64,000 nt of DNA from Escherichia phage a20. Below are positions 3,849 to 40,296 of the stretch, one piece after another; positions within the stretch are counted from its first letter, which is position 1; every line of letters starts with the position of its first letter. The notes beneath the pieces were generated by a model. It had not been told where the DNA came from. It did no database searches and was given only the letters and a program-made list of their open reading frames with translations. The stretch is from sequence record OQ067374.1. One strand, 5' to 3'. A program made the translations under genes and the position numbers.

Positions 3849-5174
3849 TCAAAGTGCCTCCAAGTCTTTAGTGTACTCTGTCACAACATCAGTAGACTTC
3901 CAATACTCATTTTCTTCTTTCTTAGCTTTAGCTTCTTCTGCTAGTTTACGTGCTTCGTCGGAAGTGATATGGAAGATGTTAAGACCTACCAGTTTATCGA
4001 CATGTTCTTTATACATTTCGATTTGTGCTAGCTCTTCAGTCAAAGCTTTACGAGTCTTGTCCTGAATCACAATTTCACCACTGATAACTTTTTTGATGAA
4101 GTGTGCCTTAGCAAAAGCAAGTTTAAATGCTTTTTCAGATTCAAGGATTTTGTTGTCAATACGTTTCTGAACGTAAGTCTTACGGACTTCAACAAAATCT
4201 TTGATTAAGTCCACTACGTTATCGTAGACAGCTAATTTACCCTTTTCATTAATCACTGTGATGTTTTGTGAACGACGTTCGATGAGACTAAAATCTTTCA
4301 TGATTTTTTCATGACGTAGCTCTTCATCATCAGGAAGCGAGTACTCTTTACGGAACTTCACCTTAAACCCAAAGCCGTGTTCACCACAATCATCTTCCCA
4401 AGAGATTAGACCTTTGTCTTCCAACGGGTCAAGAACCTTACTCACATACGTTTCACGGTCGAATTTATATGGGATTTCAGTTATCTGCATTTGAGTGCGA
4501 GATGTGAACTTATATGTTCCGTGAATCTCATAACGCCCATCAACTTCATGTACTTCGCCACGGAATTCCGGGAATTCAACTTTTGGCTTAGTGACATTTT
4601 TACCTTGAAGAGCTTGTAATACAGCCTTTTTTACCGATTTAAAACTATGAGGCAGAATATTTGTTGCGTAACCGGTTGCAATACCAGAAACACCATTCAA
4701 AAGAACTGTCGGAATAATAGGAAGATAGAATTTTGGTGGAATGTGTTCTTTATCTTCATGAGCTGGAGCATATTCAGTATCTTTATATACGTTATAGAAA
4801 TTTTTACTTACACGAGCAAAAATATAACGAGATGCTGCAGCTTTTTGGACTGTTCTAGAACCAAAGTTGCCCTGGCCATCTAACAGTGGATAGTTGTTGT
4901 TCCATGTGTTAGCCATTAATGCACCTGCATCTTGTGCAGAAGATTCACCGTGGTGATAACCTAAATCTGCAACACCGCCTGCAATTGACGCAAGTTTATG
5001 AAATTTTTCTTTATTACCACGAGCCAAATCTAATGCACGATGAACCACAAAACGTTGAACCGGTTTAAATCCATCAATCATGTTTGGGATTGCACGGTTT
5101 TCAACGGTGTACATCGCATATGCTAAGGCTTCGTTATCAATAATACTTTTTAGATTACGAGAATTCAATTGCAT
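3849..5174 (-). CDS. 52: DNA topoisomerase II medium subunit (GyrA-like, gp52)
   Basis: 441 aa; ...AYAMYTVENRAIPNMIDGFKPVQRFVVHRAL...; catalytic-Tyr region typical of type IIA topoisomerase A subunit; T4 gp52 is 442 aa. Confidence 0.93.
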   Translation of the reverse strand: MQLNSRNLKSIIDNEALAYAMYTVENRAIPNMIDGFKPVQRFVVHRALDLARGNKEKFHKLASIAGGVADLGYHHGESSAQDAGALMANTWNNNYPLLDGQGNFGSRTVQKAAASRYIFARVSKNFYNVYKDTEYAPAHEDKEHIPPKFYLPIIPTVLLNGVSGIATGYATNILPHSFKSVKKAVLQALQGKNVTKPKVEFPEFRGEVHEVDGRYEIHGTYKFTSRTQMQITEIPYKFDRETYVSKVLDPLEDKGLISWEDDCGEHGFGFKVKFRKEYSLPDDEELRHEKIMKDFSLIERRSQNITVINEKGKLAVYDNVVDLIKDFVEVRKTYVQKRIDNKILESEKAFKLAFAKAHFIKKVISGEIVIQDKTRKALTEELAQIEMYKEHVDKLVGLNIFHITSDEARKLAEEAKAKKEENEYWKSTDVVTEYTKDLEAL

Positions 5175-5178
5175 ATTT

Positions 5179-5319
5179 TCACCATATTAATGAACGAATA
5201 ATCATTATAACATCTGAAATGAAAAGCACTACTTGGATTAGTCCAAACATCACACCATAGTACAGAACCGTAAGCAACAACAAGAGCCCGAAGGCTCCTG
5301 CTAAGATTTTCTTAATCAT
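5179..5319 (-). CDS. small hydrophobic membrane peptide (46 aa), immediately upstream of gene 52
   Basis: Hand-translated MIKKILAGAFGLLLLLTVLYYGVMFGLIQVVLFISDVIMIIRSLIW; TAATG overlap with upstream peptide; below the 60-aa ORF-track cutoff. Confidence 0.4.
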   Translation of the reverse strand: MIKKILAGAFGLLLLLTVLYYGVMFGLIQVVLFISDVIMIIRSLIW

Positions 5320-8602: not shown

Positions 8603-10816
8603 TTATTTGGCCGCTTCCACGGCCTTCATGAATTTAACGATTTGAGCGACCTGTTCTTTTGAAAGAGTACCACGTCGTCCCATGTATTCTGACACAATAT
8701 GATAATTGGTTTCGAATTCAATAACCATTTTATCATCATTATCGTAAGCATTATCTTTAAGCTTATCGAAAATTTTAGCACACAATTCTAACTTCTTATT
8801 CAGTTCTCTGTTAGTAGCACCTGAGAATCGATTCCATCCCCAACGATTATTTACTGTTGAAAGTTTTGCAAAATCTTTACTGATTTCTTTGTTCTTAGAG
8901 CTAAAATACTTACTAAGGAAGTTAAGCTCTTCATTACGAGTAATATGATTCAAATAAGGCTGTGCTCTACGACTTGGTGATACATACTCATCATAATCCA
9001 CTTTATCAATTAGCGTAATATAGTCATTAATTGATTTTTCGAACAAGCATTCTACTTCACCAAGTTTACGAACTTTCTTAGCAATCTGTGGACGGACTAC
9101 AGTGAACTCTTTAATACCTGACAAATCAGCAATACGAGTCAAGAAATTAGAATCATAGTTCAACCAACCTTTATCTGCGTCAAGACATTCAGCGTTAGAA
9201 CGATTACGAATTACAACATAACCTTGAATCTCATCAGCTTTACCGGCCGGAATAAAGAGATCTTCTGATACCCAAACATCGTTTTCATTCTTAAAGAACC
9301 GATGAGCACTTGGGGATTTAGGACGAGGCTGCGATGAACGTTCTTTAACTTCAATCCATGGTTTAACTAATGCAAGAATTTCAGAGGTCTTATAAAATTT
9401 AAGGCTATCACCAGCGAAAATAACCTTTAATCGTTCCAGAAGTTTCATTGCAACTTCATCTTCCGGGTTAATGAATAATACGCTACTACCCCGTCCGGAA
9501 GGAACCTTATCAACGAGTGTTGATGCATCGGTGGAAGTCAAAGCATCGTTCAGAGCACGCATCATTGGTACGCGGCCTTTCACATCGTCAATAACAATAT
9601 CAATATGCTTACGACTAATACCTAGCAGGCTATTAATTGAAATAGTTGCAGACGAGCTTCCGCTTTCACGAATACGACGAAGTCGTGGATCTGAAACGAT
9701 ATCATATACAACGCCAAGGTTGCACCATTCAGGTCCCATTTTAAAACGTTTGTACAACTCAGAATAAGTTAGTTGTTCTTTAGAATATTTCAGTGATTCA
9801 ATATTAGAACCGGCTTTTTCCATGTATTTACGAGCAGAGTAACCAAGAGAATCGATTTCACGGAATACATGACGTGGATATTCACAATCAATCCATTTCT
9901 TAGAATCTTCAGCAAATAATTTTGCATCAATTTCTGCAACACGTTTATGAATATTTGCTACTGTACGTTTATCAAATGACAATGCTTCACGAGACGGGGC
10001 TACATCTAGTTCACCCATAGGGAATTTGATATAAGCTGTAGTGCATCGCGTCATCATCCATGTTTGTTCTTTAATAACACTTCCGATTGGATATACAATA
10101 CCACCATAAACAGCCATGATATTACCACGTTCACCCCATGGAGCTTCCTTGGCCAAATATACATCGTCAAATTCAGGAAAGTATTTAATATCTTTAACAC
10201 CACGAACTTCTGCAATATCGCCGAGAGGACGCATAACATAAGCAATTTCGGATGCGAACTTTTCAAAATCTTCTGGGTTAACCGGTACAACTACTTCTAC
10301 ACCCGTACGGTCATCGGGGCCCATCTTATCTACAAAGGTTGGCTTAATTTGTGGACCTGTGTCATCTTGGTAGATTACGTAACCACGAACTTCACCGTTG
10401 TGATAAGACGTAAGGTTAAACGTATCGGTATATGCTAGTGGAGCTTTAGAGCCGAGTCCGAATCCACCAATGAAATCGTTACTCGATGTTTTAGTTGAAG
10501 CAAAATACGAGTTATAGATTCCTGGCTCTTCGTCATTACCTCGAATGGTGAAATCACTCATACCAGGACCAAAGTCTCGAACTACAAAACGCGGGTCTAA
10601 ACGACCTGGAGCCTGAACAATAAACTTATCAGTGCAACCATTAAGAATTTGTCCATCGATACAGTTTGTGATTAATTCACGTACACAAGCCAATTCTTTG
10701 TTTGTATAAAGGTCATTAGACAAAATCTTATAAACTTTACTATTGCCTTGAATAGTGAATGCTGTGCTCTTACCGCCTGAACCAATAATCGTTTCTTTAG
10801 CCGTTTCAATAATCAT
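8603..10816 (-). CDS. rIIA: rIIA protein (GHKL ATPase-like N-terminal domain)
   Basis: 737 aa; N-terminus ...ELACVRELITNCIDGQ...VVRDFGPGMS...GGFGLGSKAP (histidine-kinase-like ATPase motifs); T4 rIIA is 725 aa; adjacent to rIIB. Confidence 0.9.
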   Translation of the reverse strand: MIIETAKETIIGSGGKSTAFTIQGNSKVYKILSNDLYTNKELACVRELITNCIDGQILNGCTDKFIVQAPGRLDPRFVVRDFGPGMSDFTIRGNDEEPGIYNSYFASTKTSSNDFIGGFGLGSKAPLAYTDTFNLTSYHNGEVRGYVIYQDDTGPQIKPTFVDKMGPDDRTGVEVVVPVNPEDFEKFASEIAYVMRPLGDIAEVRGVKDIKYFPEFDDVYLAKEAPWGERGNIMAVYGGIVYPIGSVIKEQTWMMTRCTTAYIKFPMGELDVAPSREALSFDKRTVANIHKRVAEIDAKLFAEDSKKWIDCEYPRHVFREIDSLGYSARKYMEKAGSNIESLKYSKEQLTYSELYKRFKMGPEWCNLGVVYDIVSDPRLRRIRESGSSSATISINSLLGISRKHIDIVIDDVKGRVPMMRALNDALTSTDASTLVDKVPSGRGSSVLFINPEDEVAMKLLERLKVIFAGDSLKFYKTSEILALVKPWIEVKERSSQPRPKSPSAHRFFKNENDVWVSEDLFIPAGKADEIQGYVVIRNRSNAECLDADKGWLNYDSNFLTRIADLSGIKEFTVVRPQIAKKVRKLGEVECLFEKSINDYITLIDKVDYDEYVSPSRRAQPYLNHITRNEELNFLSKYFSSKNKEISKDFAKLSTVNNRWGWNRFSGATNRELNKKLELCAKIFDKLKDNAYDNDDKMVIEFETNYHIVSEYMGRRGTLSKEQVAQIVKFMKAVEAAK

Positions 10817-11121: not shown

Positions 11122-12222
11122 TTACGCTGTGAAGATTTTATCCCACATCGCAACAACTGCATCTCGGTTATACTTCTTCCATACTGCTTCAGCACGTTTA
11201 ACTCGAGCTTCGTATGTGTCAGTGAATTCTAATACAGCTTTTGTGTAAAGCGCAACTACTTCTTTCTTAGGAGTAGAGGAATCAATTTCTACACGCACAG
11301 TATCTGGGTCGTATTCGAATGTCGCATGAGGATAATCCTTAAAAACTAACTGGATTACAGGGACACCTTTAGAGATGGCTTCAATAGAACTATTCTCTAC
11401 CGTACCTGTGTCAGGACACGTATTAATAAGTGCTTTAGCCGTTTTAAGACGTTCCATGATTTCACTGTGTGGAGCATCAATAATAACAGGATATTTAGCT
11501 GGTGGTGCCCATTTACTAGGACAGTATCCTACACCATTTTCGCCTAGTGCTTTAATCGCTTCAAGAGCAACATCAGTACGACGCATTTTAGTGTCATAAC
11601 GTTGTGCACTAATAATCAGATCAGTCGCCGGAAGAACTTCAGGTTTCTCATTCAAACAAATAACCGGATAATCTTCGGCTTCAAACAACGGATTTGCTCG
11701 CCAATAATCATAATCGATTTTGTCAGTCAGACCTGAAGTCATATAACAATATTTGCGTTCAAATTCACGGAAGGCTTTAGTAGGAGCATAACTCTTACCG
11801 CCATTCTTATGAATTTGAATAGTCTGGTCCCAAATTTGAACAATGCCACGAGATACTGGTTCAAATGGTGTTGCCATAAAATTCTTATGAACTTTAGAGA
11901 GACCTGCGTCTTTAATTGCCTGAACGGTTAGTTTAGTCGGTTCCATAGTAACAACAAAATCGTATTCATGGATGCCGGCTAGTTCAACAATCTTACGAGC
12001 CATAGTATAACTCATACCTAGACTGAATTTAGTCAGATGACCAACAGGATGGTGTGTAACTTTCCAGTCACCAAACATGTCATTATCAAAGCCGATATAA
12101 TCAATATCGGCACCGATAGAAACTAAATATTTCAACACGTTCAAATGAACCGCTTCAAGACCACCTTGTACACGGTCAGGATTAAATGGGACTGCACGAG
12201 ATGGGATAAACATAACTTTCAT
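11122..12222 (-). CDS. putative GT-B fold glycosyltransferase (candidate DNA hmC sugar transferase)
   Basis: 366 aa; N-terminal MKVMFIP...GGLEAV...LVSIG and C-terminal ...ENSSIEAISKGVPVIQ motif typical of GT-B (GT4-like) enzymes; sits between rIIA.1 and gene 39 where T4 has gene 60/mobA. Confidence 0.55.
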   Translation of the reverse strand: MKVMFIPSRAVPFNPDRVQGGLEAVHLNVLKYLVSIGADIDYIGFDNDMFGDWKVTHHPVGHLTKFSLGMSYTMARKIVELAGIHEYDFVVTMEPTKLTVQAIKDAGLSKVHKNFMATPFEPVSRGIVQIWDQTIQIHKNGGKSYAPTKAFREFERKYCYMTSGLTDKIDYDYWRANPLFEAEDYPVICLNEKPEVLPATDLIISAQRYDTKMRRTDVALEAIKALGENGVGYCPSKWAPPAKYPVIIDAPHSEIMERLKTAKALINTCPDTGTVENSSIEAISKGVPVIQLVFKDYPHATFEYDPDTVRVEIDSSTPKKEVVALYTKAVLEFTDTYEARVKRAEAVWKKYNRDAVVAMWDKIFTA

Positions 12223-12235
12223 AATTAAGCCTTAT

Positions 12236-12266
12236 TAAAATTAAAATGAAGCTCCCGAAGGAGCTT
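12236..12266 (-). terminator. terminator-like hairpin overlapping the stop of the HNH gene
   Basis: aagctcc-cgaa-ggagctt with downstream U-rich tract on minus-strand RNA. Confidence 0.55.
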
Positions 12267-13062
12267 AGGACATCCAACACATTTTATAACCTTTGCAGGT
12301 TCTGTTAGGATTATTTAATGCTTTCAATATATTAGAAGACCCTATATCTAAATACTCTCTTAATTCATAAAGATAGTTAAAATCAATAGTTTCACCTGTT
12401 TTTACACTTGTGATTCTTATAGGCCTTCTTTCATATTTAGATTTATACAACTCTCTAGTCTTAGCTTTAGTTTCTTCCGACCTAGGAGTGTATGGTTTAA
12501 ATCCTTTTGTTTTAAATGTTTCCATTCTTGATTTAGTTATTTTATCCTGGTGTTCTTTTGTTTTTACAGGTGCTTTTCGCCCATTCTCCCAAGATAACTT
12601 GTTGGCCTGTATTATTTTATCTATTGCTTCTTGCGTATGAGTTTTACCATAAAATGGATTTAATTCGCCTATACGTTGTGAAGCAATATGTGACATTAAT
12701 TCTCTTGTTGCTTTAGTATGTTTTTTACCTTTAAATGGGTTGCCGTTTTTAGCAATCCATTCTTTCATAAATCTAGAGTGCTCTTTAGAGAATTCTTGTT
12801 TAAGCCAATCATAATCTCTAGAATTTCTAGCTCCCATGTAAAAAGCTCTAATAGCCATAAGCATAGAACGGTTCTTATGAATTTTATAAAGCAATAAATG
12901 GGCGATAAAATGCTCTCTAGGGGTCATTTTAACTAGATTTGATTTATCATTACTCCCACCCATAGATTTTGGCAATATATGATGTGTCTCAGTATAATTA
13001 GGAATAATGCTGCGGTTTTTAGCCGCAGCGATAAGTTTATCATAAATTTTACGATAATTCAT
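12265..13062 (-). CDS. HNH-family homing endonuclease (Mob-like) with NUMOD3-type repeats
   Basis: ...ETHHILPKSMGGSNDKSNLVKMTPREHFIAHLLLYKIH... plus repeated NPF(Y/K)GK(T/K)HT; start taken at MNYRKIY giving TAATG overlap with gene 39 stop. Confidence 0.8.
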   Translation of the reverse strand: MNYRKIYDKLIAAAKNRSIIPNYTETHHILPKSMGGSNDKSNLVKMTPREHFIAHLLLYKIHKNRSMLMAIRAFYMGARNSRDYDWLKQEFSKEHSRFMKEWIAKNGNPFKGKKHTKATRELMSHIASQRIGELNPFYGKTHTQEAIDKIIQANKLSWENGRKAPVKTKEHQDKITKSRMETFKTKGFKPYTPRSEETKAKTRELYKSKYERRPIRITSVKTGETIDFNYLYELREYLDIGSSNILKALNNPNRTCKGYKMCWMS

Positions 13063-14882
13063 TATCCTAGCATCCAATCTTTACGGAGTTCAGGGTCGTT
13101 ACCCATGAGCATTTCAAATAGTTCTTTCCAATTTTCAGGAAGTTTAACTACGTCGTACACAGGGTTTTGAATCATTTCTTTATATTCATCTCGCTGAAGT
13201 GAGCCCAATCCCTTGATGTATCGAATACTATGCTTAGGCAGTGTATCTTTAGCTTCTTCATACTCAGCTACAGTATAAAACCATTTTTGAGTTTTGCCAA
13301 TTTGTGCAATAATTACAGGCGTTTTAACAAAGCGAATACGTCCTTGTTCAAACAATTCAGGCCAATTACTAAAGAAAGCAAGCAAAGCTGGATAGATACT
13401 TCCAAGACCGTCATGATCGGCATCGGTCATAATTGCAATATTACGATAGTTCGTATTCTCTGCCTTTTCACCAAGAATAAGACCTGTGATAGCACAGATA
13501 TCAAAGAGCTCTTTGTTCTTCATCATATCAGCATATGACATACCCCAGCTATTCATCACCTTACCACGTAATGGGAATCCGCCGTGTAGTTCACGGTCAC
13601 GAACATCAATGAGATAACCAATTGCCGAATCACCTTCTGTTAAAAACAATGTCGTATCTGCATCTTTACCACATTGGTTAGCTTTAATATGCTTATGAAC
13701 CTTAGCTTTAGTTGCCTTTTTAGCTGCTTTAGTTTCTGCAGCCTTTTCTGCCGCCAATTTACGAGCTAATGCTGCTTCAACAATAGGCATAATCAAGGCT
13801 TCGTTTTTAAGAAGTGCCTGAGCAATTTTCTTAGCATCTAATTGGATATGATTACGAATATCACCATACGTTGACGTTAAACGTTCTTTAGTCTGAGAAT
13901 CAAAACGCATGTTGCTCATGTCTCTAATAAACATCAACATTGTGAGACATTCTTTAACACGAGCTTTAGTGACTTCAATACCCTTATATTTCTTTTTAAT
14001 ACCCGGCAAAAGATGTTCACAGATATCATCCATTACACATTCAACATGATGACCACCGTTTTTAGTATGGATGTTATTCACATAAGTTAAATGACGGAAG
14101 CCATCTGGTGATGTTGTGAATGCTATAGAGACTTTATCATTTTCTTGAATGATGTTATCTTCACCAAATTGTTTAGCAAATCGTTTAAAATTACCATCAA
14201 CCTTTTTACCATTAAATGTGAACTTGATATCAGGATAAACGACTGCCAATGTTTGAAGTCGGTCTAAAGTAATATCTAAATAAATTTGAGATAAATTATG
14301 CTCTTCAAATGAAGAGAAATCAGGAGTGAAGATTACTTTAGTGCCTTTACCTTTAGATTTCTTAGAAGACCATGATTTGTTTTCCATTCCGTTTGAACAG
14401 TTAACAGTGATTTCATTTTCGCCATCTGACGTGATGCCTGTAAACAACGTAGAGAAGATATTAGTTAAACTACTCCCGACGCCGTTCATACCACCAGTCT
14501 TGCGTTCAGAGTCATCACCAAAGTTACCACCAGCCTTTGGAATAGTCCAGGCTGCTACAGGCCCAGGAATTTGTTCACCTGTTTGGTCGGTAACTAAACC
14601 TTGAGGAATACCACGTCCGTTATCTTCCACCGAAACTTGATTATTTTTAATTTGCACATCAATTTTATTTGCAAACTTAAATGATGTACGAATAGCTTCA
14701 TCAACCGAGTTGTCAATAATCTCATCGATTAATTTAACCAGACCAGGAACATATTCAACTTGTTGATATTTACCAAACAAAAAACGCTCGTGTGCTTCTT
14801 TAGCCGAAGAACCAATATACATACCACTACGTTTCTTAATATGTTCTACATCTGACAATACCTTAATTTCATTTTTAATCAT
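13062..14882 (-). CDS. 39: DNA topoisomerase II large subunit, unsplit (gp39 fused with gp60-equivalent C-terminus)
   Basis: 606 aa; GyrB-like ATPase motifs (EIIDNSVDEA, VEDNGRGIP, GGxxGxG region) then TOPRIM region LFLTEGDSA...MTDADHDGLGS; one continuous ORF, no gene 60 split. Confidence 0.92.
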   Translation of the reverse strand: MIKNEIKVLSDVEHIKKRSGMYIGSSAKEAHERFLFGKYQQVEYVPGLVKLIDEIIDNSVDEAIRTSFKFANKIDVQIKNNQVSVEDNGRGIPQGLVTDQTGEQIPGPVAAWTIPKAGGNFGDDSERKTGGMNGVGSSLTNIFSTLFTGITSDGENEITVNCSNGMENKSWSSKKSKGKGTKVIFTPDFSSFEEHNLSQIYLDITLDRLQTLAVVYPDIKFTFNGKKVDGNFKRFAKQFGEDNIIQENDKVSIAFTTSPDGFRHLTYVNNIHTKNGGHHVECVMDDICEHLLPGIKKKYKGIEVTKARVKECLTMLMFIRDMSNMRFDSQTKERLTSTYGDIRNHIQLDAKKIAQALLKNEALIMPIVEAALARKLAAEKAAETKAAKKATKAKVHKHIKANQCGKDADTTLFLTEGDSAIGYLIDVRDRELHGGFPLRGKVMNSWGMSYADMMKNKELFDICAITGLILGEKAENTNYRNIAIMTDADHDGLGSIYPALLAFFSNWPELFEQGRIRFVKTPVIIAQIGKTQKWFYTVAEYEEAKDTLPKHSIRYIKGLGSLQRDEYKEMIQNPVYDVVKLPENWKELFEMLMGNDPELRKDWMLG

Positions 14883-31440: not shown

Positions 31441-31803
31441 TTAAAAGAATTTAAATTTTTTCTTGGTTCGTTCATTAAAAGCTTGTTGTACTTGCATTGT
31501 AACACATTTTTCAACATGTGGTGCAAGTTCTGCTTTTCTGTCCTGGTCAAGAACTGCAAAGTCCATTACGATTTTACCATCAACCCAGTCTAGTTTTGTA
31601 ATATAGACTATATGATGGGAACCGTCTTCAAGTGTAATCAGAATCTCTTGAATGACATTTTCCATTGCTGAACGGATAATTTTAAGAGATTCATTAAACA
31701 CTCGTTCTTTGCGAATGTCTTCCCCTTCCGAAGAAGGGGATTCATCAACGATTTCTAGATTTAAATCATCGAGATTATTCATCGAAATCTTCCATTTCGT
31801 CAA
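31441..31803 (-). CDS. 40: gp40-position protein (head vertex assembly chaperone in T4)
   Basis: 120 aa; synteny between uvsX and 41; no motif verified. Confidence 0.55.
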   Translation of the reverse strand: MTKWKISMNNLDDLNLEIVDESPSSEGEDIRKERVFNESLKIIRSAMENVIQEILITLEDGSHHIVYITKLDWVDGKIVMDFAVLDQDRKAELAPHVEKCVTMQVQQAFNERTKKKFKFF

Positions 31804-32947
31804 GGTCGTTTTCTATATCTGCTGCAGACGGAGCATCAGAAGTTTTAACCGGAACTTTAGTTGTTGCTTTGCAATTAATAAGGTCATTAACAGCGTCATC
31901 AACTTCTTTAATAGAAGAGATAGCACCTAGTTTATATTTAGTTTCAATTGCATCTCGGAAAGGTTTGTGTTTAAACAAAGGTCCCCAGAATTCTACACAA
32001 TCAGTAGCTTTAGCACGCCATGATTTCTCTTCACGAATCATTTCACCTGTTTCTTCGTCAAGGAATTCGCGAGCATACCAACCGGCTTTAGGCTTAACTA
32101 CAAAACCAATTTCAGTTGCCATTTCTAACAAGCCACTGAATGGGTCAATACCGCCATCAAAATTAACCGTGATCGGGAAAGTAGATTTCTCTTTAACTGT
32201 GCGAGATTTTTCTGCTTTCAACGTGAAGTCATAACCGGTCAATTCTGTACCTTCTTTAACCTGACGTTTAGAGATAAAAAATACCGTGTTGGCAGAATAA
32301 AGAATACCTGTACCACCGCCCATAATCTCTTTAGGATACAATCCGCCAATTTCCATTGCTGTATGGTTAATTGCAACACACGGAATATCTTTAATAGTCA
32401 GATACGGGGTCACAATGCGGAACAGAGATTTAAGTGCCTTAGCACGAGACATATCACCTACAACTTTCTCGTTCAATGCATCTTCGGTTTCTTTCTTAGA
32501 TGCAGTATTACCAATCGAGTCAATAAAGATAATAACTTTATCACCGCGTTCAATAGCGTCAAGCTGATTAGTCATATCGACTTTAAGTTGTTCGACAGAT
32601 TGAATCGGAGTATGAACTACACGGTCTAAATCAACACCCATTGAACGAAAATAAGATTCTGAAGCACCGAATTCTGAGTCATAAAACAAACAGATTGCAT
32701 CTTTATATTTCTTCATATACGCTGCAACCATAGTCAGCCCAAACAACGTTTTAAAGTGTTTAGAAGGAGCAGCAAAAATAGTTAAGCCTGATTGCAACCC
32801 TGCATTCAGTGCACCACCTAATGCAATATTCAACATCGGAATACGAGTAGGGACTTCATCACGATTATTAAACAGCTTAGACTTAGTCAAGTCTGCAGTC
32901 ATTTTAGAAGTAGAAGCTTTAATCAGACGAGATTTTAAATCAGACAT
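31775..32947 (-). CDS. uvsX: UvsX recombinase (RecA/Rad51 family)
   Basis: 390 aa; ...GLTIFAAPSKHFKT (Walker A-like) ...; T4 UvsX 391 aa. Confidence 0.92.
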   Translation of the reverse strand: MSDLKSRLIKASTSKMTADLTKSKLFNNRDEVPTRIPMLNIALGGALNAGLQSGLTIFAAPSKHFKTLFGLTMVAAYMKKYKDAICLFYDSEFGASESYFRSMGVDLDRVVHTPIQSVEQLKVDMTNQLDAIERGDKVIIFIDSIGNTASKKETEDALNEKVVGDMSRAKALKSLFRIVTPYLTIKDIPCVAINHTAMEIGGLYPKEIMGGGTGILYSANTVFFISKRQVKEGTELTGYDFTLKAEKSRTVKEKSTFPITVNFDGGIDPFSGLLEMATEIGFVVKPKAGWYAREFLDEETGEMIREEKSWRAKATDCVEFWGPLFKHKPFRDAIETKYKLGAISSIKEVDDAVNDLINCKATTKVPVKTSDAPSAADIENDLDEMEDFDE

Positions 32948-33045: not shown

Positions 33046-33594
33046 TTAACGAGCCCATTTGATGATTTCTGTAATCAAAACATTACGTTCGCTTGCATTA
33101 AATCCTATAACTTTGTTAGCACCATCATGATTAAGTAATTGATACGTTTGGATTTTGTTATGAATTGCAAACTCTTCAAAATGTGAAATGACTGTATTAA
33201 AACCGAATGAAGACAAAGTAATAAGGTCGTCTTCAAAACTTTCAGTCATTTCGTTACGTGTTAAAATAATTGTGAACACATCATGGTTTTGGCAAAGACG
33301 AACATAATCCTGTTCATAAACGTCAAGAACCGAGTCCGCATCTTGTCGAATACGTCCATAAACCCAGTTACTAATATATCCACGGTCTAACAGATAAATC
33401 TTAGTAGGGTCTAAATAATTCAACATCGTTTCGAAACAGCCAACTTCATTTCGAGACTTAACATCGAAACGTCCATCAACTGTTCGTTTAGGGAAATCAA
33501 TCTTTACATATCTTTCACTAATTTCCATTATGTCATTAATGAAAGTTGTTTTACCAGCATTATCCGGGCCATCTACTAAAATAATTTTAGCCAT
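33046..33594 (-). CDS. P-loop nucleotide/nucleoside monophosphate kinase-like protein (thymidylate-kinase-like)
   Basis: 182 aa; Walker A LVDGPDNAGKTT and LLDRGYIS (DR-Y motif) as in dNMP/thymidylate kinases. Confidence 0.55.
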   Translation of the reverse strand: MAKIILVDGPDNAGKTTFINDIMEISERYVKIDFPKRTVDGRFDVKSRNEVGCFETMLNYLDPTKIYLLDRGYISNWVYGRIRQDADSVLDVYEQDYVRLCQNHDVFTIILTRNEMTESFEDDLITLSSFGFNTVISHFEEFAIHNKIQTYQLLNHDGANKVIGFNASERNVLITEIIKWAR

Positions 33595-33595
33595 T

Positions 33596-34495
33596 TTATT
33601 CCTCGATTACGACATCTTCATATTTAGGTATATTATACGGTGAAGAAATTAAAGCATTAAAGTAGATGAACTCACCAAGACCTGGATGAAATACTTCTTC
33701 AGGATTTTCGAAATATTGAATCTTCGGACGTCCTTTAAGAATTTGATAGTATTCAGTTTTAGTTGGTTTAAAAATTCGAATCAACGCTTCTTCAGGATAC
33801 TTATTTCTGTCGAAGCTATTATTTGGATCGGTTATATAAAGCGGTTGGCCTAATTGAATTGCACATTCAACCACTTGTTCAAAACGATAGCATGGGTCAC
33901 TAATTCGAAATGGATGAAAAATACCATCTAGATGAATAGGAGCCAAATCACCTACAAGACGCTGCATGATGGAAGGACGTATAACTTTCTGCGTTACGAT
34001 AATCTTATTACCATCTGCACCTGCGTTAACCAGCACTTCTTTTTGACGTTCATTCAACACAGTAGTTTGAAGTGAACGATTAACCGACAACATATCGGTT
34101 TTTAAGAATTCGTCAATATAAAAACGTGGTTTATTAGGGTCTGCAGTGATATTGAAATTGAATTCTACATCAAAAGCGCCGTCATATCCGGTGATATCTG
34201 TGATTAGAAAATCACAATCATAATAAGCAATTAATGAATCAACCACAAATTCATTTTCAGTCCAGAAATATTTACGAGTGTTATACGCGTTATCTTTATA
34301 CCATAATGGAACAAACTTAAATTCTGGGAAAAGACGTTCACATTCTTTAATATCAGATGCATTACGTGGATATGTAATCACATCACCTGGATTAGCACGG
34401 TGCAAATGAAGTTGGAAGTTGCCATCCTTAAGGATAGCATACTGCCCAGTTTCATAAGACCGCATACTCAAAATAGGTACGCGGAAAATAGCCAT
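33596..34495 (-). CDS. protein of unassigned family occupying the T4 beta-glucosyltransferase position (candidate DNA-modifying transferase)
   Basis: 299 aa; no motif recognised; adjacent to the hydroxymethylase; T4 has bgt between uvsX and 42. Confidence 0.5.
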   Translation of the reverse strand: MAIFRVPILSMRSYETGQYAILKDGNFQLHLHRANPGDVITYPRNASDIKECERLFPEFKFVPLWYKDNAYNTRKYFWTENEFVVDSLIAYYDCDFLITDITGYDGAFDVEFNFNITADPNKPRFYIDEFLKTDMLSVNRSLQTTVLNERQKEVLVNAGADGNKIIVTQKVIRPSIMQRLVGDLAPIHLDGIFHPFRISDPCYRFEQVVECAIQLGQPLYITDPNNSFDRNKYPEEALIRIFKPTKTEYYQILKGRPKIQYFENPEEVFHPGLGEFIYFNALISSPYNIPKYEDVVIEE

Positions 34496-35211
34496 TAGTC
34501 AAGGAATCCTTTAACATAATCAAAATCACGTTCAAACACATGGGCACTTACCATGGTATGAGTATAATCACCAACTTCTACACCACATTCGTTAGCGATA
34601 TAATGAAGTAATTTTCCTTGGAGATAAAAATCCAACTGCATAACAACAGCACAGTTCTGAGAACGCATATGACAGTGGGTATAAAGCTTACCATCACGAA
34701 TATAATAAGTCACTGAGTCAGTACATGGATATTCAAGAGTTTCGTCCGAATCAAGCAAAGCCTGATCAGAACTTTCTAGAATTTGGAACACAACTCTTCG
34801 AGAGTTAGGCTTCTCTTTAAGTTCTTTTAGAAGAGCTGGTAATTGGGCCGCAATGCGAGGACCATAGAAAGTGTTGAAGTTCGCCGGCAAAACATCTGAT
34901 TTTGGTTTAGAAATAAATTTAGCGACATTAGGATATGCCTTAAACGCTTCTTCTGCGTTGGTACCACCAGAAATCATAAACTTCCAGAAGTCTTCGGCAT
35001 ATTCATAAGAGATGCGGTTAATACGTGGGTCAGTCATTTTGAATGATGATGGAGTGTCAACAACTACTGTCATAGACCCAATTTCATTACAACGTCCAAT
35101 ACGAGAATCAGTTACGAATTCCGGGTTTTCTAAAATTTCACGATTGACTGCTTTAAATGCGGTTTGAAAATCTGCGGCTTTGATATATTTCATTGTGTTA
35201 TGTTTTCCCAT
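34495..35211 (-). CDS. 42: thymidylate-synthase-superfamily pyrimidine hydroxymethylase (gp42-like, divergent)
   Basis: 238 aa; ...KPNSRRVVFQI...EYPCTDSVTYYIRDGKLYTHCHMRSQN... (catalytic Cys context and R-S-x-N/D region of TS/dCMP-HMase fold); position of T4 gene 42. Confidence 0.7.
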   Translation of the reverse strand: MGKHNTMKYIKAADFQTAFKAVNREILENPEFVTDSRIGRCNEIGSMTVVVDTPSSFKMTDPRINRISYEYAEDFWKFMISGGTNAEEAFKAYPNVAKFISKPKSDVLPANFNTFYGPRIAAQLPALLKELKEKPNSRRVVFQILESSDQALLDSDETLEYPCTDSVTYYIRDGKLYTHCHMRSQNCAVVMQLDFYLQGKLLHYIANECGVEVGDYTHTMVSAHVFERDFDYVKGFLD

Positions 35212-35253: not shown

Positions 35254-35493
35254 TTATTTGAATTTCTTAGCGATGTTGATATAACGTAAAGCTTCAGCAT
35301 CGATACTTCCAAGAACACTATGAAGAAATGCATCAGCGTAGTATTCCAATTGAACAGGTTCTTTAATCACTTTAGCCGCTTTGGTTCCAAACAGGCCCAT
35401 AAGGGCCTTTTTAAGAATTTGTTCATTAGTGTTCAGTTTCATAGTCAAAATCTCTTCATTAAGTTGGTGGTTAAAAGTTTTTCTAGAAATCAT
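35254..35493 (-). CDS. hypothetical small protein
   Basis: ORF track, 79 aa. Confidence 0.45.
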   Translation of the reverse strand: MISRKTFNHQLNEEILTMKLNTNEQILKKALMGLFGTKAAKVIKEPVQLEYYADAFLHSVLGSIDAEALRYINIAKKFK

Positions 35494-36650
35494 TCTGGGT
35501 ACCTCAAAGCGTCATCAGAGTTAGTTATATCAATAATAGATATAGAATTTTCTGATAACCCATTTTTAGATAACTGACGTTTATAATATCTTTCACAATA
35601 TGTACACGTCGTCCCGCAGATTTCATTAGCACAATCGAAATCTGGATGTCTGAACCACCTTTTTTCTAAAAAGCCATCTAACAAAGAGGTTTCAATATTT
35701 ACTGTATGTGAAAACTCAGTTTCGTTTTCAAGAGTGAAAATAGTCTCTAAAGGCTTCCACAGTTCTAACAAATTACCTTCAAACTTTTCAGAAGCGTATG
35801 CTTCAAGAACTTTCAAAATGTAGTCTGTGCTACCTGTACGTCCTGAAACTTTGAATTGAGTGATACCAATATCATTATAAAGTTTCAAATCTTGAGGACG
35901 AACAAAACGAGTTCTCAACCAGTTAAATGGGTCTGTATCACGAGCTTTAATGCAGTGTTGCATTGGATATCCGTTTAAGGATTTAGCATCATCAGCTGTA
36001 ACATCAGTACTATGGAAAATATAGCAAGAGTCACGATAGCTACAATGTGTTGTATACCCTTTACCAGCATTAGAACAGAACTCATTTACAAGAACTTCAA
36101 ATATTATATTGTTCTTATTGCAAAACTCTGCTGCACGCTTCAGGAAAGAAACTGAACGGTTCTTATGAATTCCACAGCAGACCTTTTTGATATTATATTG
36201 GTCATGCAAGTATTTGATTTGAGTTACAGCATCGACATGTAGAATTGTTGAAACTTCAATCTCAATGTCTTTATTGACTTCACGAACAATTTCCATAACA
36301 ACAGGGTTAGCGATAGTAATACGCCATACGCCTATTGACCAAAGATACTGAACATAATCCTGAATAGCTTTCTTCTTCCACTCAACTAGTTCTCTTTTTG
36401 AACCAGGATTTATCGTGTTGAGTGTATAGTTAAAGCAAATACCTAATTCGTTACAACGTTTAACGTAATCTTCTAACATCTTTTTGTCAACGTCAGGAAG
36501 CCTAAAATCAGGTCTGGCTGCTACAAAAGCCATTTCTCTTGTAGAGCCGTATACTTCGTTTATCAAGCTATTAGGATAAGTTTTATTGAGCTCTACGATT
36601 TTATCAAGAAGAGCTAAATCAAAATTCGTTCCAATTTTAAAAGTATTCAT
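35490..36650 (-). CDS. Cys-rich putative Fe-S enzyme of unassigned family
   Basis: 386 aa; clusters KKVCCGIH, EFCSNAGKGYTTHCSYRDSCY and C-terminal DCANEICGTTCTYCERYY (contains a CxxxCxxC spacing). Confidence 0.5.
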   Translation of the reverse strand: MNTFKIGTNFDLALLDKIVELNKTYPNSLINEVYGSTREMAFVAARPDFRLPDVDKKMLEDYVKRCNELGICFNYTLNTINPGSKRELVEWKKKAIQDYVQYLWSIGVWRITIANPVVMEIVREVNKDIEIEVSTILHVDAVTQIKYLHDQYNIKKVCCGIHKNRSVSFLKRAAEFCNKNNIIFEVLVNEFCSNAGKGYTTHCSYRDSCYIFHSTDVTADDAKSLNGYPMQHCIKARDTDPFNWLRTRFVRPQDLKLYNDIGITQFKVSGRTGSTDYILKVLEAYASEKFEGNLLELWKPLETIFTLENETEFSHTVNIETSLLDGFLEKRWFRHPDFDCANEICGTTCTYCERYYKRQLSKNGLSENSISIIDITNSDDALRYPE

Positions 36651-36707: not shown

Positions 36708-37097
36708 TTATAGATTCGGTTTATATGATTTAAATGTTTCGAATTCGCCTTTATTCATAAGAGCTTTGAATTCGTCAGGACGCATAGCTTTGTCGTCGAT
36801 AATCCAATCATATACTGGTTTATGTGTTAGCAAATTATGGTACTTCAAACCAATGTTTTCCAAGTTCTGAATCAGACTTGGGAGAATGTCAATTGCTATA
36901 CGTCCAGGACCTACTGACTTCATACCGCGAGCAGTGTAAAGCGTTATGGTATGCCCTGCATCATACAGAGCATTAATAGCAGTCACCATTTCGACGTCTG
37001 GTTTGAAGTTCACGTAATCACGATTGTTATTCCACTCTGTTATACAATCATCGACGTCCACGCAAAGATGTAATGGTTTCATAGCAATATCCTTCAA
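36708..37097 (-). CDS. small HAD-superfamily phosphatase
   Basis: 129 aa; motif I LCVDVDDCIT (DxDx[T/V]), ITLYTAR, and K...IIDD; start may be the ATG 15 nt downstream. Confidence 0.6.
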   Translation of the reverse strand: MKDIAMKPLHLCVDVDDCITEWNNNRDYVNFKPDVEMVTAINALYDAGHTITLYTARGMKSVGPGRIAIDILPSLIQNLENIGLKYHNLLTHKPVYDWIIDDKAMRPDEFKALMNKGEFETFKSYKPNL

Positions 37098-37809
37098 TAG
37101 AATTTTTAATATTATCAGCTATACGCTTTCTAGGAATACCCGTTTTCTTTTCAGCTATCCTAAGAGATTCATAGTAATTTTCGTTTATTTTAACAAATTT
37201 TTGAGACTTGTGAGCATTTTTGCTTTCGTCCTGATATCGATAATTAAGATATTTAGGCGATTTTACTCTCTTTTGAATCGTGGCAGAAGATATACCCAAA
37301 TCTTTAGCCGCTTCCCGACAGGATTCATAATATTTGCCATCTACATTAATCTTTAGACCATGTAATGCAGGTTTACCATACCTCCTGTGCTTTTCTTTAC
37401 CCCTAGCTATAGATTCAGCTGACAAAGTTTTACCCCATCTTGGGTTTTTATCACCAACTAAACGTCCTTTATTTGCCTTAGAAATTTTATCCTTGGACCT
37501 TTGGGATAACCCGTCAGAACCGCCTTCGCCACCAGTTTTAAGATTGTAATAATTTGGGTCTTTAACTATGTCTAATGTTATTAGAGCCTTTTCAGCTATT
37601 TTTAATTCTTCTCTCGAGCTATGGTAGGAAATGATTTCTTTAAGAAAATTTTCCTTCCCGTATTTCCTTTCAGCCTTTTTATATAATTTACCAGAACCTT
37701 TATATAAATCTAAAGGCTCGGCTTCTTCAGCCGAGTGCATTCCTAAATAAACTTTACCGTTTATAAGATTAGTAGTTTTGTAGAGATAATGTATCAAATT
37801 CGTTCCCAT
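37048..37809 (-). CDS. GIY-YIG homing endonuclease (Seg-like)
   Basis: 253 aa; N-terminal HYLYKTTNLINGKVYLGMHS...YKGSG (GIY-YIG module), basic DNA-binding C-terminal region; overlaps both neighbours. Confidence 0.8.
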   Translation of the reverse strand: MGTNLIHYLYKTTNLINGKVYLGMHSAEEAEPLDLYKGSGKLYKKAERKYGKENFLKEIISYHSSREELKIAEKALITLDIVKDPNYYNLKTGGEGGSDGLSQRSKDKISKANKGRLVGDKNPRWGKTLSAESIARGKEKHRRYGKPALHGLKINVDGKYYESCREAAKDLGISSATIQKRVKSPKYLNYRYQDESKNAHKSQKFVKINENYYESLRIAEKKTGIPRKRIADNIKNSIEGYCYETITSLRGRR

Positions 37810-39479
37810 TGATGAGTGATATCGCCACCGATTGGACGATAGGAAACACCAGTTTCTTTATCAGTTAGTACCCATTTACCAGGATTTTTTGTAATCAGAG
37901 TAGCCGTTACAGGTTCTGCTACGTCATAACTAATAGAGCCGTCTTGAAGTACACGGCCCATATTACGTAATTGCTTAGTCAGAAGTTCCATACCTTTATA
38001 ATATGCGGCTACCGCTTTAAGTGGATTATTCTTGAAATAACCACCTAATGCAATCCAGATAATTGCCACTGCCAAATGATGATACTCGTTAAACGAACTC
38101 ATCTTTCCATATTTGTAAACTAATGGATTGATGTTAATAGTCACATTACAAGTTGTTTCATCAATAGTAAACTGTCCCCAGGTCGGATTAGCATTGAATT
38201 CATCATAACCTGAAACAGCATAAAGCACTTTAGCTTCATCATACAATTTTGGCCCGTAAATCTTGGTTTCGCCAAAATATCCACGAGGGTCGATAAACTT
38301 AACTTCGCCGTTATCAGTAATCATAGTATTACTGAAGTTCGGGTCACCATGAATAACAGAGTACTGTCCCTGAGAACGGTTATGATAACGAATAAGATGT
38401 TCTAAAGCTTGTTTCAGCATTGGCTTCAGACGTCCAATCTTAGTGTAGTTCACATGTGTGATTTTACCAAATGAATCAATCAATGGTTGAATGCTTTCAC
38501 AACGATCAATAACTTTCGTATAGAATTCTTTAGTGAAATCACGACGAACAGTTTCAGGACTTACAAAATAAGTGTCTGTGCTGAATTTCAGTGCATCTAA
38601 AATTGTATCAACAATTTGTGGACGAGCAAGACTTGATTTGGATTTAATATATTCAAATGCCGGCTTACCTTTAATGCGTTCCATTTCAAAGTTATTTTCA
38701 TTAACAGAAACTAACTGAGGGACTGAATCTGATTTCACTTTCAAATACCACGAAATCTCATCTTTCTGAAGAGCTCGGCCCTGTTCGGTTAATGCGAATT
38801 TAGTTACAGTTTCTTCACCGATTTCAACTGCATTAAAACTACGATTAAGTTCACGAACTTCATGAGCTTTTTCAAGTTTAGGCATATCACCTAAATCAAT
38901 TAGATTCATAAGCTCTGATTTATTGAATGCGCCGCTGTAAAGGAATTCTACGAAATCACGTCCTTTGCAGTATTCATGAATTTCTTCATCAGTAGAACCC
39001 ATATAGAATTCCCAGTCTTTGAACTGATAAATTCCTACAACATTACCACCTGTTGAACCTACGTTAGTGATATTTTCACCGTCGAAATTATATCGACATT
39101 CGTCGCCCTTAACATAGATTGCGTTAACATTCCAAGACCATGAACCAAAATCGGGAATAATATCACACCAGTTAACAATTACATTATGGCCGTCTAAATC
39201 TTTGTGTAATTTAGCAAGAGCATAAGCAGATCCATACGCTTCATCAACTGTACGAATAGTCACATTGAACCCTTCTTGCTCACAATAAGCTCGAACAGTT
39301 TCAGCAAATTTTGAATGAACTACTACAATAATTTCATCTGCGCCTAGGTCAGAATAAATTGTATACAAATTGCTCAGAATAGTGTCTTGTTTATAGTTAA
39401 CAAGCACCTTAGGAATATGGTGAGTAATTGGATATAAACGAGTTGCCAGTCCAGCACCAAGAATAACAGCTTTTTTCAT
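37794..39479 (-). CDS. bifunctional sugar-1-phosphate nucleotidyltransferase (N-terminal) / APH-ChoK-type kinase (C-terminal)
   Basis: 561 aa; N-term MKKAVILGAGLATRLYPIT...PKVLV (G-x-G-x-x-R-L nucleotidyltransferase signature, LicC/RmlA-like); C-term HGDPNFSNTMIT...VKFIDPRGY (Brenner HxDxxxxN and DxxG of aminoglycoside/choline kinase fold). Confidence 0.7.
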   Translation of the reverse strand: MKKAVILGAGLATRLYPITHHIPKVLVNYKQDTILSNLYTIYSDLGADEIIVVVHSKFAETVRAYCEQEGFNVTIRTVDEAYGSAYALAKLHKDLDGHNVIVNWCDIIPDFGSWSWNVNAIYVKGDECRYNFDGENITNVGSTGGNVVGIYQFKDWEFYMGSTDEEIHEYCKGRDFVEFLYSGAFNKSELMNLIDLGDMPKLEKAHEVRELNRSFNAVEIGEETVTKFALTEQGRALQKDEISWYLKVKSDSVPQLVSVNENNFEMERIKGKPAFEYIKSKSSLARPQIVDTILDALKFSTDTYFVSPETVRRDFTKEFYTKVIDRCESIQPLIDSFGKITHVNYTKIGRLKPMLKQALEHLIRYHNRSQGQYSVIHGDPNFSNTMITDNGEVKFIDPRGYFGETKIYGPKLYDEAKVLYAVSGYDEFNANPTWGQFTIDETTCNVTININPLVYKYGKMSSFNEYHHLAVAIIWIALGGYFKNNPLKAVAAYYKGMELLTKQLRNMGRVLQDGSISYDVAEPVTATLITKNPGKWVLTDKETGVSYRPIGGDITHQWERI

Positions 39480-39520: not shown

Positions 39521-39664
39521 CTAGTTAAAGCATTCATACTTTGCTTGTAGTCCAATCATAATCCATCCAATTACAAGTGTTGGAATCATTACCGGAGCCG
39601 TTAAGCTCCAGTAGATAGTCATGACAAGCATCAATAGTAAAAGTCCTATTGCTATTGCTTTCAT
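39521..39664 (-). CDS. small hydrophobic membrane peptide (47 aa) between the sugar-isomerase gene and the fused kinase gene
   Basis: Hand-translated MKAIAIGLLLLMLVMTIYWSLTAPVMIPTLVIGWIMIGLQAKYECFN; TAATG overlap with SIS gene stop; imm-like position. Confidence 0.4.
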   Translation of the reverse strand: MKAIAIGLLLLMLVMTIYWSLTAPVMIPTLVIGWIMIGLQAKYECFN

Positions 39665-40296
39665 TATTCGCCTCGTAACATGGCACCTAGTGCACCACCA
39701 GGGTGGAACTTAAGGAAATCATTAGAGGTAAATCCACGTTCAGACGAAAGGTTGATAGCAAACGTATCGATAAGCGCTAACAACAATGTAGTGGACATAG
39801 TCGGAGCCAGAGAATTCTCATCAACCTCTACTGCGATGCCTGTACAGAAAGAGTAATCAAAAAGGGCTTCATTTTCTTGTGGAATGTCTGGGTTACAATG
39901 CAACAGAATCTGTTTGACGTTCGGACGAATCATTTTAAGATGCTTAGCCACGCCTATCATTTCTTCAGTTTTACCAGAACGACTAATATGAATCAACACA
40001 TCATTAGGCGCAATGAATCCTGCATCACCGTGAGAATAATGCCCAGTGTTCAAGTACATACTCGGGATACCTAGTGAAGCAAAAGTCTCGGAAGCTTTAG
40101 TTGCGATATTAGCATTCTTACCAACACCTGTAATAATTACTCGGCTTTCATAATTACTAAGTCCCGGGCGTCGAAGAGTTTCTAGAATAGCATTATAACG
40201 AGCAGGGTTTTGACTAATTACTTTGGCCATAGCGGCCAAAGAAGAAGCTTGTTTTATGATTGCGTCAATAGCGATAGTAATAGGAGTAGTTTTCAT
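39664..40296 (-). CDS. single-domain SIS sugar-phosphate isomerase, KdsD/GutQ-type (arabinose-5-phosphate isomerase-like)
   Basis: 210 aa; VIITGVGKNANIATKASETFASLGIPSMYLN...SHGDAGFIAPNDVLIHISRSGKTEE...LAPTMSTTLLLAL...GFTSNDFLKFHPGGALG closely parallels KdsD core motifs; lacks CBS domains. Confidence 0.8.
   Translation of the reverse strand: MKTTPITIAIDAIIKQASSLAAMAKVISQNPARYNAILETLRRPGLSNYESRVIITGVGKNANIATKASETFASLGIPSMYLNTGHYSHGDAGFIAPNDVLIHISRSGKTEEMIGVAKHLKMIRPNVKQILLHCNPDIPQENEALFDYSFCTGIAVEVDENSLAPTMSTTLLLALIDTFAINLSSERGFTSNDFLKFHPGGALGAMLRGE

Follow-up and report, generated by a model that had tools for sequence, protein, structure and literature searches.

A predicted arabinosyltransferase and a thymidylate-kinase-like protein in the beta-glucosyltransferase slot of an RB69-like phage

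In phage T4, the slot between uvsX and the ThyA-family gene holds segA and the beta-glucosyltransferase gene b-gt. What occupies this slot in Escherichia phage a20, and what does it contribute to DNA modification? We analyzed a 64,000-nucleotide stretch of this phage (sequence record OQ067374.1), here called the window, in which two open reading frames (ORFs) lie in the slot: one for a 299-amino-acid (aa) protein, termed GT1, and one for a 182-aa P-loop kinase resembling thymidylate kinases (TMKs). An original prediction, made from the sequence letters, had placed both there, and the ORF list and the comparison with T4 confirmed that both are present and fill the b-gt slot. Together with the neighboring ThyA homolog, they would form a conserved core that replaces cytosine by glycosylated 5-hydroxycytosine (5hoC) in a T4-like order; we assign this scheme, taken as a whole, a probability of roughly 0.6. 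Both genes have already been described in the 2025-2026 literature. New here are the census of the three-gene core, the record counts, the fusions of kinase relatives to glycosylase-type domains, and modules of kinase, GT1, and a U32-family gene without a nearby ThyA-like gene. The genes in and around the slot are as follows (dCMP, deoxycytidine monophosphate):

31775..32947: uvsX, the other flank of the GT1-kinase pair
33046..33594, (-) strand: TMK-like P-loop kinase, 182 aa, homolog of RB69 gp45 and DLP3 gp78
33596..34495, (-) strand: GT1, 299 aa, homolog of RB69 gp46:47, DLP3 gp79, and Thanatos TH1_063; compact GT-B protein
34495..35211, (-) strand: ThyA/gp42 homolog, flavin-dependent dCMP 5-hydroxylase (5-hydroxy-dCMP synthase)

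Genes of the slot and their acceptor base

Escherichia phage NRG-P0074, a Mosigvirus, shares 99.1% identity with the window, and many RB69-like phages, BASEL phage Bas47 included, are ~98% identical to the region; by sequence, the window belongs to an RB69-like Mosigvirus. The stop codon of the hydroxylase gene overlaps the GT1 start codon (TAATG), and a single base separates the GT1 stop from the kinase start (TAAAATG), with GAGG just upstream. The three genes are therefore tightly packed, and this overlap or near-abutment of start and stop codons was counted as coupled expression of hydroxylase, GT1, and kinase. Since GT1 was found in 348 and the kinase in 350 phage records, with many residues invariant down to ~37-42% identity, both ORFs are real genes.

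The PDB entries 9iqc, 9ir2, and 9iqu share ~98% identity with the ThyA homolog, T4 gp42 only 25%. In alignments, the homolog reads RSQN...LD, compared with RSAD...FN in Staphylococcus aureus ThyA (4dq1) and RSND...RND in T4 gp42. The D169N/N177D pair (E. coli numbering) is the signature of 5-hydroxy-dCMP synthases, and in RB69 the ThyA homolog, gp48, forms 5-hydroxy-dCMP in a reaction that uses flavin and O2 (PMC13326640). By this signature, the neighboring ThyA homolog is a dCMP 5-hydroxylase and not a hydroxymethylase. Because the hydroxylase carries these residues, the acceptor base is 5hoC and not 5-hydroxymethylcytosine (hmC). The assay named with the original prediction used hmC-DNA; hmC as the acceptor was rejected, since "gene 42" is a D169N hydroxylase. 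Arabinose was reported earlier in RB69 DNA, where the base was called arabinosyl-hmC and ORF003c was proposed as the transferase (Thomas et al. 2018; PMC6024577). The RB69 base has since been identified by nuclear magnetic resonance as beta-Araf-3-alpha-Araf-5-hydroxy-dC (Lee et al. 2026, NAR; PMC13326640), where Araf is arabinofuranose.

GT1 is 99% identical to RB69 ORF047c/046c (gp46:47), whose coding sequence is split in two pieces in the RB69 reference record, matching a sequencing error reported by Lee et al. (PMC13326640). Identity to the Thanatos homolog TH1_063 is 47.5%. Neither the single GT1 sequence nor a 42-sequence family profile matched any entry in Pfam, NCBIfam, or the PDB, and the scan of the window's proteins gave no match of GT1 to Pfam Glycos_transf_1 or Glyco_trans_4, so that the earlier description of a protein with no recognizable glycosyltransferase motif is correct at the sequence level. 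The named members among 138 GT1 homologs are phage "hypothetical" proteins, and the remainder are unnamed metagenomic sequences. In the family alignment, S10-M-R-S13, K23-D-G-N26, R33, R74, F193-x-P-F-R197-x-x-D200, T222-x-P-N225, K246, and H270-P-G272 are invariant. By sequence position, R197 (within FPFRISD), K246, and H270-P271-G272, the last followed by a conserved E/D, all lie in the C-terminal half; in GT4-like enzymes, the C-domain holds a basic residue for the pyrophosphate of the NDP-sugar and an acidic one for its ribose or sugar.

The fold of GT1 consists of two Rossmann-like alpha/beta domains with a cleft between them for the active site, as in GT-B enzymes. The structural neighbors, each with its score, were the following:

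6kih, sucrose-phosphate synthase: 17.6
6n1x, BshA: 16.7
2gej, PimA: 15.6
9iqz, glycosyltransferase of phage HY126: 14.3
1y6f, T4 alpha-glucosyltransferase (alpha-GT): 13.0

GT1 is a compact GT-B/GT4-like enzyme with an ordinary glycosyltransferase fold. The earlier proposal of a novel-fold DNA sugar transferase thus holds only in part: the fold search returned a known GT-B fold, with 6kih and BshA nearest, while a transferase function is still predicted from this fold, from synteny, and from distribution. GT1 fits the phage "arabinosyltransferase 1" family in its 99% identity to the RB69 protein and in adjoining a D169N-type 5-hydroxy-dCMP synthase. GT1 was also considered as a homolog of T4 beta-glucosyltransferase (beta-GT); this was rejected, as no similarity to b-gt was detectable. 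GT4-like folds are typically retaining, consistent with the alpha linkage of the sugar next to the base. We predict GT1 to be the first (base-proximal, alpha) arabinofuranosyltransferase acting on 5hoC. The published names "arabinosyltransferase 1" for gp46:47 and "nucleotide kinase" for gp45 were assigned from AlphaFold models (PMC13326640).

The kinase begins MAKIILVDGPDNAGKTT and contains LLDRGYISNWVYG. Both motifs for which it had been called thymidylate-kinase-like, GPDNAGKTT and LLDRGY, were found, and its P-loop nucleoside monophosphate (NMP)-kinase fold is closest to TMKs. G9-x-D11-N-A-G-K15-T16, F34-P35-K36-R37, and D70-R71 are conserved, with R37 changed to K or S in 2 of 19 sequences; the invariant residues are G9, D11-N-A-G-K-T16, F34-P-K36, R42, R48-N-E50, F54-E55, D70-R71, S75-N76, Y79, R113, and D122-D123. 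Both vaccinia and yeast TMK align with the family profile over the P-loop and the FP(K/Q/E)R motif; for the DR-x-x-x-S-x-x-x-Y region, there is an alignment with yeast TMK alone, in a second segment that scores below threshold (-1.0 bits). In Pfam, PF02223 was not reported at E up to 0.1, and in NCBIfam, TIGR00041 reached 16 bits against a cut-off of 83. Among the invariant residues are presumably those that contact the NMP phosphate and deoxyribose in TMK structures. In TMKs, thymine O4 is read by an Arg that follows the stacking Phe by four residues; we take this Arg to match invariant Leu58, and the P-loop Arg of type-I TMKs to match invariant Asn12. From these correspondences, we infer that the protein is probably a pyrimidine deoxynucleoside monophosphate (dNMP) kinase with a non-thymine substrate; its predicted role is the phosphorylation of modified dCMP.

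Membership of the kinase in the 5-hydroxymethyldeoxyuridine (5-hmdU) DNA kinase family (5-HMUDK) was rejected. The characterized member, M6 gp54, has no DR or FPKR motif, and its likeness to the kinase is confined to the surroundings of the P-loop; hmmsearch aligned residues 1-22 only, and hhalign gave a probability of 84% over the N-terminal half. The annotation of gp54 in NC_007809 (locus L062), "terminase small subunit," is misleading.

Conservation of the trio and fusions of the kinase

The census comprised 51 viral loci collected with the GT1 profile (L numbers below). Across these loci, the hydroxylase-GT1-kinase trio is nearly invariant and is independent of the sugar-activation genes. 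A ThyA-like gene lies directly upstream of GT1 in ~48 of the 51, and the kinase lies directly downstream in most; in the JS98-like, Klebsiella-phage-like, and Proteus-phage-like groups, the kinase is displaced yet still within the cluster. Genus counts for GT1 and the kinase are near-identical. In contrast, GT2, a second glycosyltransferase encoded elsewhere in the window, was found in only 211 phage records; the Klebsiella, Serratia, Yersinia, and Proteus groups lack it, and Shewanella is not among the genera tallied for these records. On these counts (348 versus 211), GT1 would be the universal, presumably base-proximal transferase and GT2 an accessory one. The remaining cluster genes of the window and GT2 are listed below.

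35254..35493, (-) strand: conserved 79-aa ORF inside the cluster, between the hydroxylase and U32 genes (PHROG 8601, E 2.6e-51)
35490..36650, (-) strand: U32 "peptidase"-family protein, 386 aa, RB69 gp50 homolog
36708..37097, (-) strand: HAD-type phosphatase of the UDP-arabinofuranose (UDP-Araf) pathway, AfhF / RB69 gp51 homolog (PHROG 1238; NCBIfam capsule biosynthesis phosphatase, E 1.1e-13)
37794..39479, (-) strand: bifunctional sugar kinase/nucleotidyltransferase, 561 aa, AfhE / RB69 gp52:53 homolog (N-terminal match to Pfam NTP_transferase; weak C-terminal matches to APH/fructosamine-kinase)
39664..40296, (-) strand: arabinose-5-phosphate isomerase, SIS domain, KdsD/GutQ-like, RB69 gp55 homolog (Pfam SIS; NCBIfam KpsF/GutQ, E 2e-32, and KdsD, E 7.2e-31)
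11122..12222, (-) strand: GT2, accessory 366-aa GT4-like transferase, RB69 ORF003c homolog

The distant metagenomic loci L031-L044, whose GT1 is ~38% identical, keep the trio, and no AfhE, HAD, isomerase, or U32 gene was found within 6 kb of it. Because the kinase tracks GT1 and the trio is independent of the sugar-activation genes, the kinase probably acts in the nucleotide branch of the pathway rather than in sugar activation. A role as a sugar-pathway enzyme, one option that had been raised for it, is disfavored by this persistence beside hydroxylase and GT1. In L036, a flavodoxin-fold protein (4790-5293, (+) strand) precedes the hydroxylase and makes, with GT1 and kinase, a self-contained four-gene module; in L055, a flavin mononucleotide (FMN) reductase (9068-9613, (+) strand) likewise adjoins a D169N-type hydroxylase. 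These proteins are likely the flavin-reductase partners of the dCMP hydroxylase in distant modules; no flavodoxin or FMN reductase gene was found in the window's own cluster.

An exhaustive profile search for the kinase family returned 305 representatives at E up to 0.001 (P numbers), and in fused relatives among these, the kinase domain is N-terminal and is followed by an extension of ~140-170 aa. Pfam identified an HhH-GPD domain (EndoIII/MutY-type) in the extensions of P0179 and P0180, and P0185, P0187, P0190, P0195, P0196, and P0244 align with these two over the HhH-GPD region; the extension of P0250 is a UDG-superfamily domain. On visual inspection, a PLD motif is retained in most of the HhH-type fusions at the place where the catalytic Asp is expected. 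The HhH-GPD and UDG superfamilies include host enzymes that excise 5-hydroxycytosine and 5-hydroxyuracil, and the fusions would link the kinase family to DNA base-flipping modules. The window's own kinase has no fused glycosylase-type domain, and no match to the kinase-HhH fusion family was found in IMG/VR. Identity of the fused HhH domain with aGPT-Pplase was rejected (hhalign probability, 0.3%). Gene orders at loci with fusions are as follows:

L055: dCMP deaminase, unassigned 137-aa gene, dUTPase/DCD, hydroxylase (RSNN...YD), 63-aa gene, kinase-HhH, FMN reductase, SIS isomerase, AfhE-like
L056: hydroxylase, kinase-HhH, GT1 N-terminus (contig end)
L058 and L060: kinase-HhH, followed by a distant GT1 in which SMRS and FFLSRLSD occur

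Some features of the wider region stand apart from the trio. GT2 matches 9iqz, the crystallized HY126 glycosyltransferase (also 9ir0), at E 3e-250 and is 98.9% identical to RB69 ORF003c; an HNH/NUMOD3 homing-endonuclease-like ORF (12265-13077, (-) strand) adjoins it, before the topoisomerase gene. Between the AfhE-like and HAD genes, a GIY-YIG homing endonuclease gene (37048-37809, (-) strand) overlaps the HAD start; its region is fully covered in 3 of the 25 closest relatives listed, and the others match in two pieces with 89% coverage. In NRG-P0074 (L001, PQ480333), the AfhE-like protein is misleadingly annotated as "dCMP deaminase," the HAD protein as "phosphoheptose isomerase," and the hydroxylase as "thymidylate synthase."

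Proposed pathway and its alternatives

In the proposed scheme, the ThyA homolog would hydroxylate dCMP to 5-hydroxy-dCMP with flavin and O2, as published for near-identical proteins. The TMK-like kinase would convert this modified dCMP to the diphosphate, the host nucleoside diphosphate kinase would produce the triphosphate, and the polymerase would incorporate it. GT1, judged by fold, synteny, and distribution, would then move the first arabinofuranose from UDP-Araf onto the 5-hydroxyl, with the isomerase, AfhE-like, and HAD genes downstream presumably supplying UDP-Araf, and the separate 366-aa GT2 would add the second sugar. Addition of the first sugar at the DNA level is favored by the T4 precedent, by the glycosylase-domain fusions, and by the hydroxylase, kinase, and glycosyltransferase being the minimal set for a T4-like order. 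In published work, gp48 together with the gp1-type kinase gp159, which phosphorylates 5-hydroxy-dCMP, suffices for 5hoC in E. coli DNA, and AfhF (the HAD phosphatase) and AfhE have been given roles in the UDP-Araf pathway (PMC13326640).

Several points weigh against this scheme. Individual DLP3 glycosyltransferases did not arabinosylate 5hoC-DNA with UDP-Araf or UDP-arabinopyranose (UDP-Arap) (PMC13326640), and TH1_063 with UDP-xylose did not glycosylate DNA, dCMP, or dCTP (PMC12838424). No demonstrated transferase activity of the GT1 family was found in the accessible literature. Furthermore, the TMK-like kinase may have another substrate, since gp159 already phosphorylates 5-hydroxy-dCMP (PMC13326640), and the kinase relatives fused to HhH-GPD or UDG-type domains are not predicted by a plain dNMP kinase role.

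The inactivity of individual glycosyltransferases on 5hoC-DNA would be expected if glycosylation preceded replication, an order that we consider unlikely. Here GT1 would arabinosylate 5-hydroxy-dCMP, the TMK-like kinase would be dedicated to arabinosyl-5-hydroxy-dCMP, the polymerase would use the glycosylated dCTP, and GT2 would extend the sugar on DNA. Lee et al. state that their data cannot tell the mononucleotide from DNA as the site of the first arabinosylation (PMC13326640). The gp1-type kinase covers 5-hydroxy-dCMP, yet the TMK-like kinase is present in essentially every GT1 genome (350 versus 348), usually abutting GT1, and it retains the presumed residues for the NMP phosphate and deoxyribose. 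The nearest structural neighbors of GT1 include GT4 enzymes with small anionic acceptors (sucrose-phosphate synthase and BshA). Both the GT1 family (median isoelectric point [pI], 5.13) and the kinase family (5.02) are acidic throughout, compared with the two DNA-acting enzymes of the comparison set, the basic T4 beta-GT (9.05) and M6 5-HMUDK (8.66), but pI is a weak proxy for DNA binding. All of this support is indirect, the glycosylase-fused kinase relatives point toward DNA, and a T4-like order explains the minimal hydroxylase-kinase-glycosyltransferase module equally well. Moreover, to our knowledge, nucleotide-level glycosylation has no precedent in any phage, which counts against it. If true, this order would give DNA glycosylation its first pathway at the nucleotide level, with DNA built from sugar-bearing dCTP, and it would explain both the second kinase besides gp1 and the failure of the glycosyltransferases on 5hoC-DNA in vitro.

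It is less probable still that the kinase acts at the DNA level with a base-flipping partner, either phosphorylating the modified base or sugar, as the original prediction had also allowed for, or serving quality control of 5-hydroxypyrimidines. HhH-GPD or UDG fusions do sit in the same module (L055 with its D169N hydroxylase, L056, and L058), and their superfamilies include the host excisers of 5-hydroxycytosine and 5-hydroxyuracil mentioned above, but the window kinase has no fused domain and its family is acidic. A precedent exists in 5-HMUDK with an HhH-fold transferase (PMC8989533); however, comparison of the fused HhH domain with aGPT-Pplase showed no relationship (probability, 0.3%), and likeness to M6 gp54 is limited to the P-loop (hhalign, 84%), the window kinase keeping the DR and FPKR that gp54 lacks. 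The final RB69 base also carries no phosphate, and a Leloir-type glycosyltransferase requires a free hydroxyl (PMC13326640). A last reading, in which the 299-aa protein is a UDP-pentose pyrophosphorylase making the activated sugar and not a base transferase, appears highly improbable. It draws on TH1_063 (47.5% identity), which in vitro converted UTP and xylose-1-phosphate to UDP-xylose (PMC12838424), an activity that could also be a glycosyltransferase side or reverse reaction. Against it, the GT1 fold is GT-B and not that of a nucleotidyltransferase, GT1 persists in modules without nearby sugar-activation genes, and the AfhE homolog of the cluster already has a nucleotidyltransferase domain, the HY126 one being reported to make UDP-arabinose (PMC13326640). 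We rate as most likely the T4-like order, in which 5hoC is incorporated and GT1 would glycosylate it in DNA.

The U32 protein and comparison with known systems

The U32 protein matches Pfam Peptidase_U32 (E 7.3e-11) and, weakly, UbiU in NCBIfam, and it has a C-terminal Cys cluster, CANEICGTTCTYC. Members of the U32 family such as UbiU/UbiV and TrhP take part in hydroxylations that do not depend on O2. RlhA, of the same family, is needed for the formation of 5-hydroxycytidine in 23S rRNA, and its action requires Fe-S clusters and prephenate (PMC5727448). For the phage gene, Lee et al. give no more than the label "sugar or heterocycle reductase" (PMC13326640). Many of the enterobacterial phage loci in the census have U32 together with the cluster; near the cluster in Acinetobacter and Pseudomonas phage loci, it is absent. 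The 79-aa ORF (PHROG 8601) overlaps the U32 gene by 4 bases and is present in only some related clusters.

Two further loci, L053 (2706-6865) and L051 (5466-8051), come from non-T4-like phages with DnaG primase and a DnaE-type polymerase, and in L053 also RecA. Their operons run from a kinase or kinase-like gene through GT1 to U32, that of L053 starting with dUTPase-like and GT47-like genes, and no ThyA homolog was found within ~12 kb in either. The kinase-GT1 pair can therefore travel with U32 where the hydroxylase usually sits. These observations suggest the U32 protein as a candidate O2-independent hydroxylation factor, which may provide an oxygen-independent route to 5-hydroxycytosine.

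Arabinosyl-5-hydroxycytosine shields phages from restriction enzymes, some CRISPR-Cas types, and glycosylase defenses, and RB69-like phages are common phage-therapy candidates. GT1 and the kinase are the least understood steps of this pathway, and the trio, the fusions, and the kinase-GT1-U32 modules are testable leads that bear on the site of the first sugar and on an oxygen-independent route to 5hoC.

The known ThyA-like hydroxylase needs O2, unlike the hydroxylations in which UbiU/UbiV and TrhP act. Set beside type I TMKs (vaccinia, yeast, and human), the kinase falls under the Pfam and NCBIfam thresholds, and its Leu58 and Asn12 differ from the Arg residues that we assume at these positions. 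It shows no difference from the "nucleotide kinases" RB69 gp45, DLP3 gp78, and RL38J1_214 (PMC13326640), and, like the T4 gp1 dNMP kinase and RB69 gp159, it is a putative P-loop dNMP kinase of a modified-cytosine phage. With the 5-hmdU DNA kinase M6 gp54 and the HhH-fold aGPT-Pplase, it has in common a P-loop kinase in a base-hypermodification cluster, and relatives of the window kinase are HhH-fused. GT1 belongs to the same family as RB69 gp46:47 and Acinetobacter phage DLP3 gp79, its ORF being intact in the window and split in the RB69 record. In contrast to T4 alpha-GT and the retaining GT4 transferases (6kih, BshA, PimA, and 9iqz), to which it is only 8-12% identical, GT1 is ~60-100 residues shorter and has invariant motifs of its own. 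With T4 beta-GT, it shares the genomic slot, the GT-B superfamily, and, as predicted, the decoration of the C5-oxygen of a modified cytosine.

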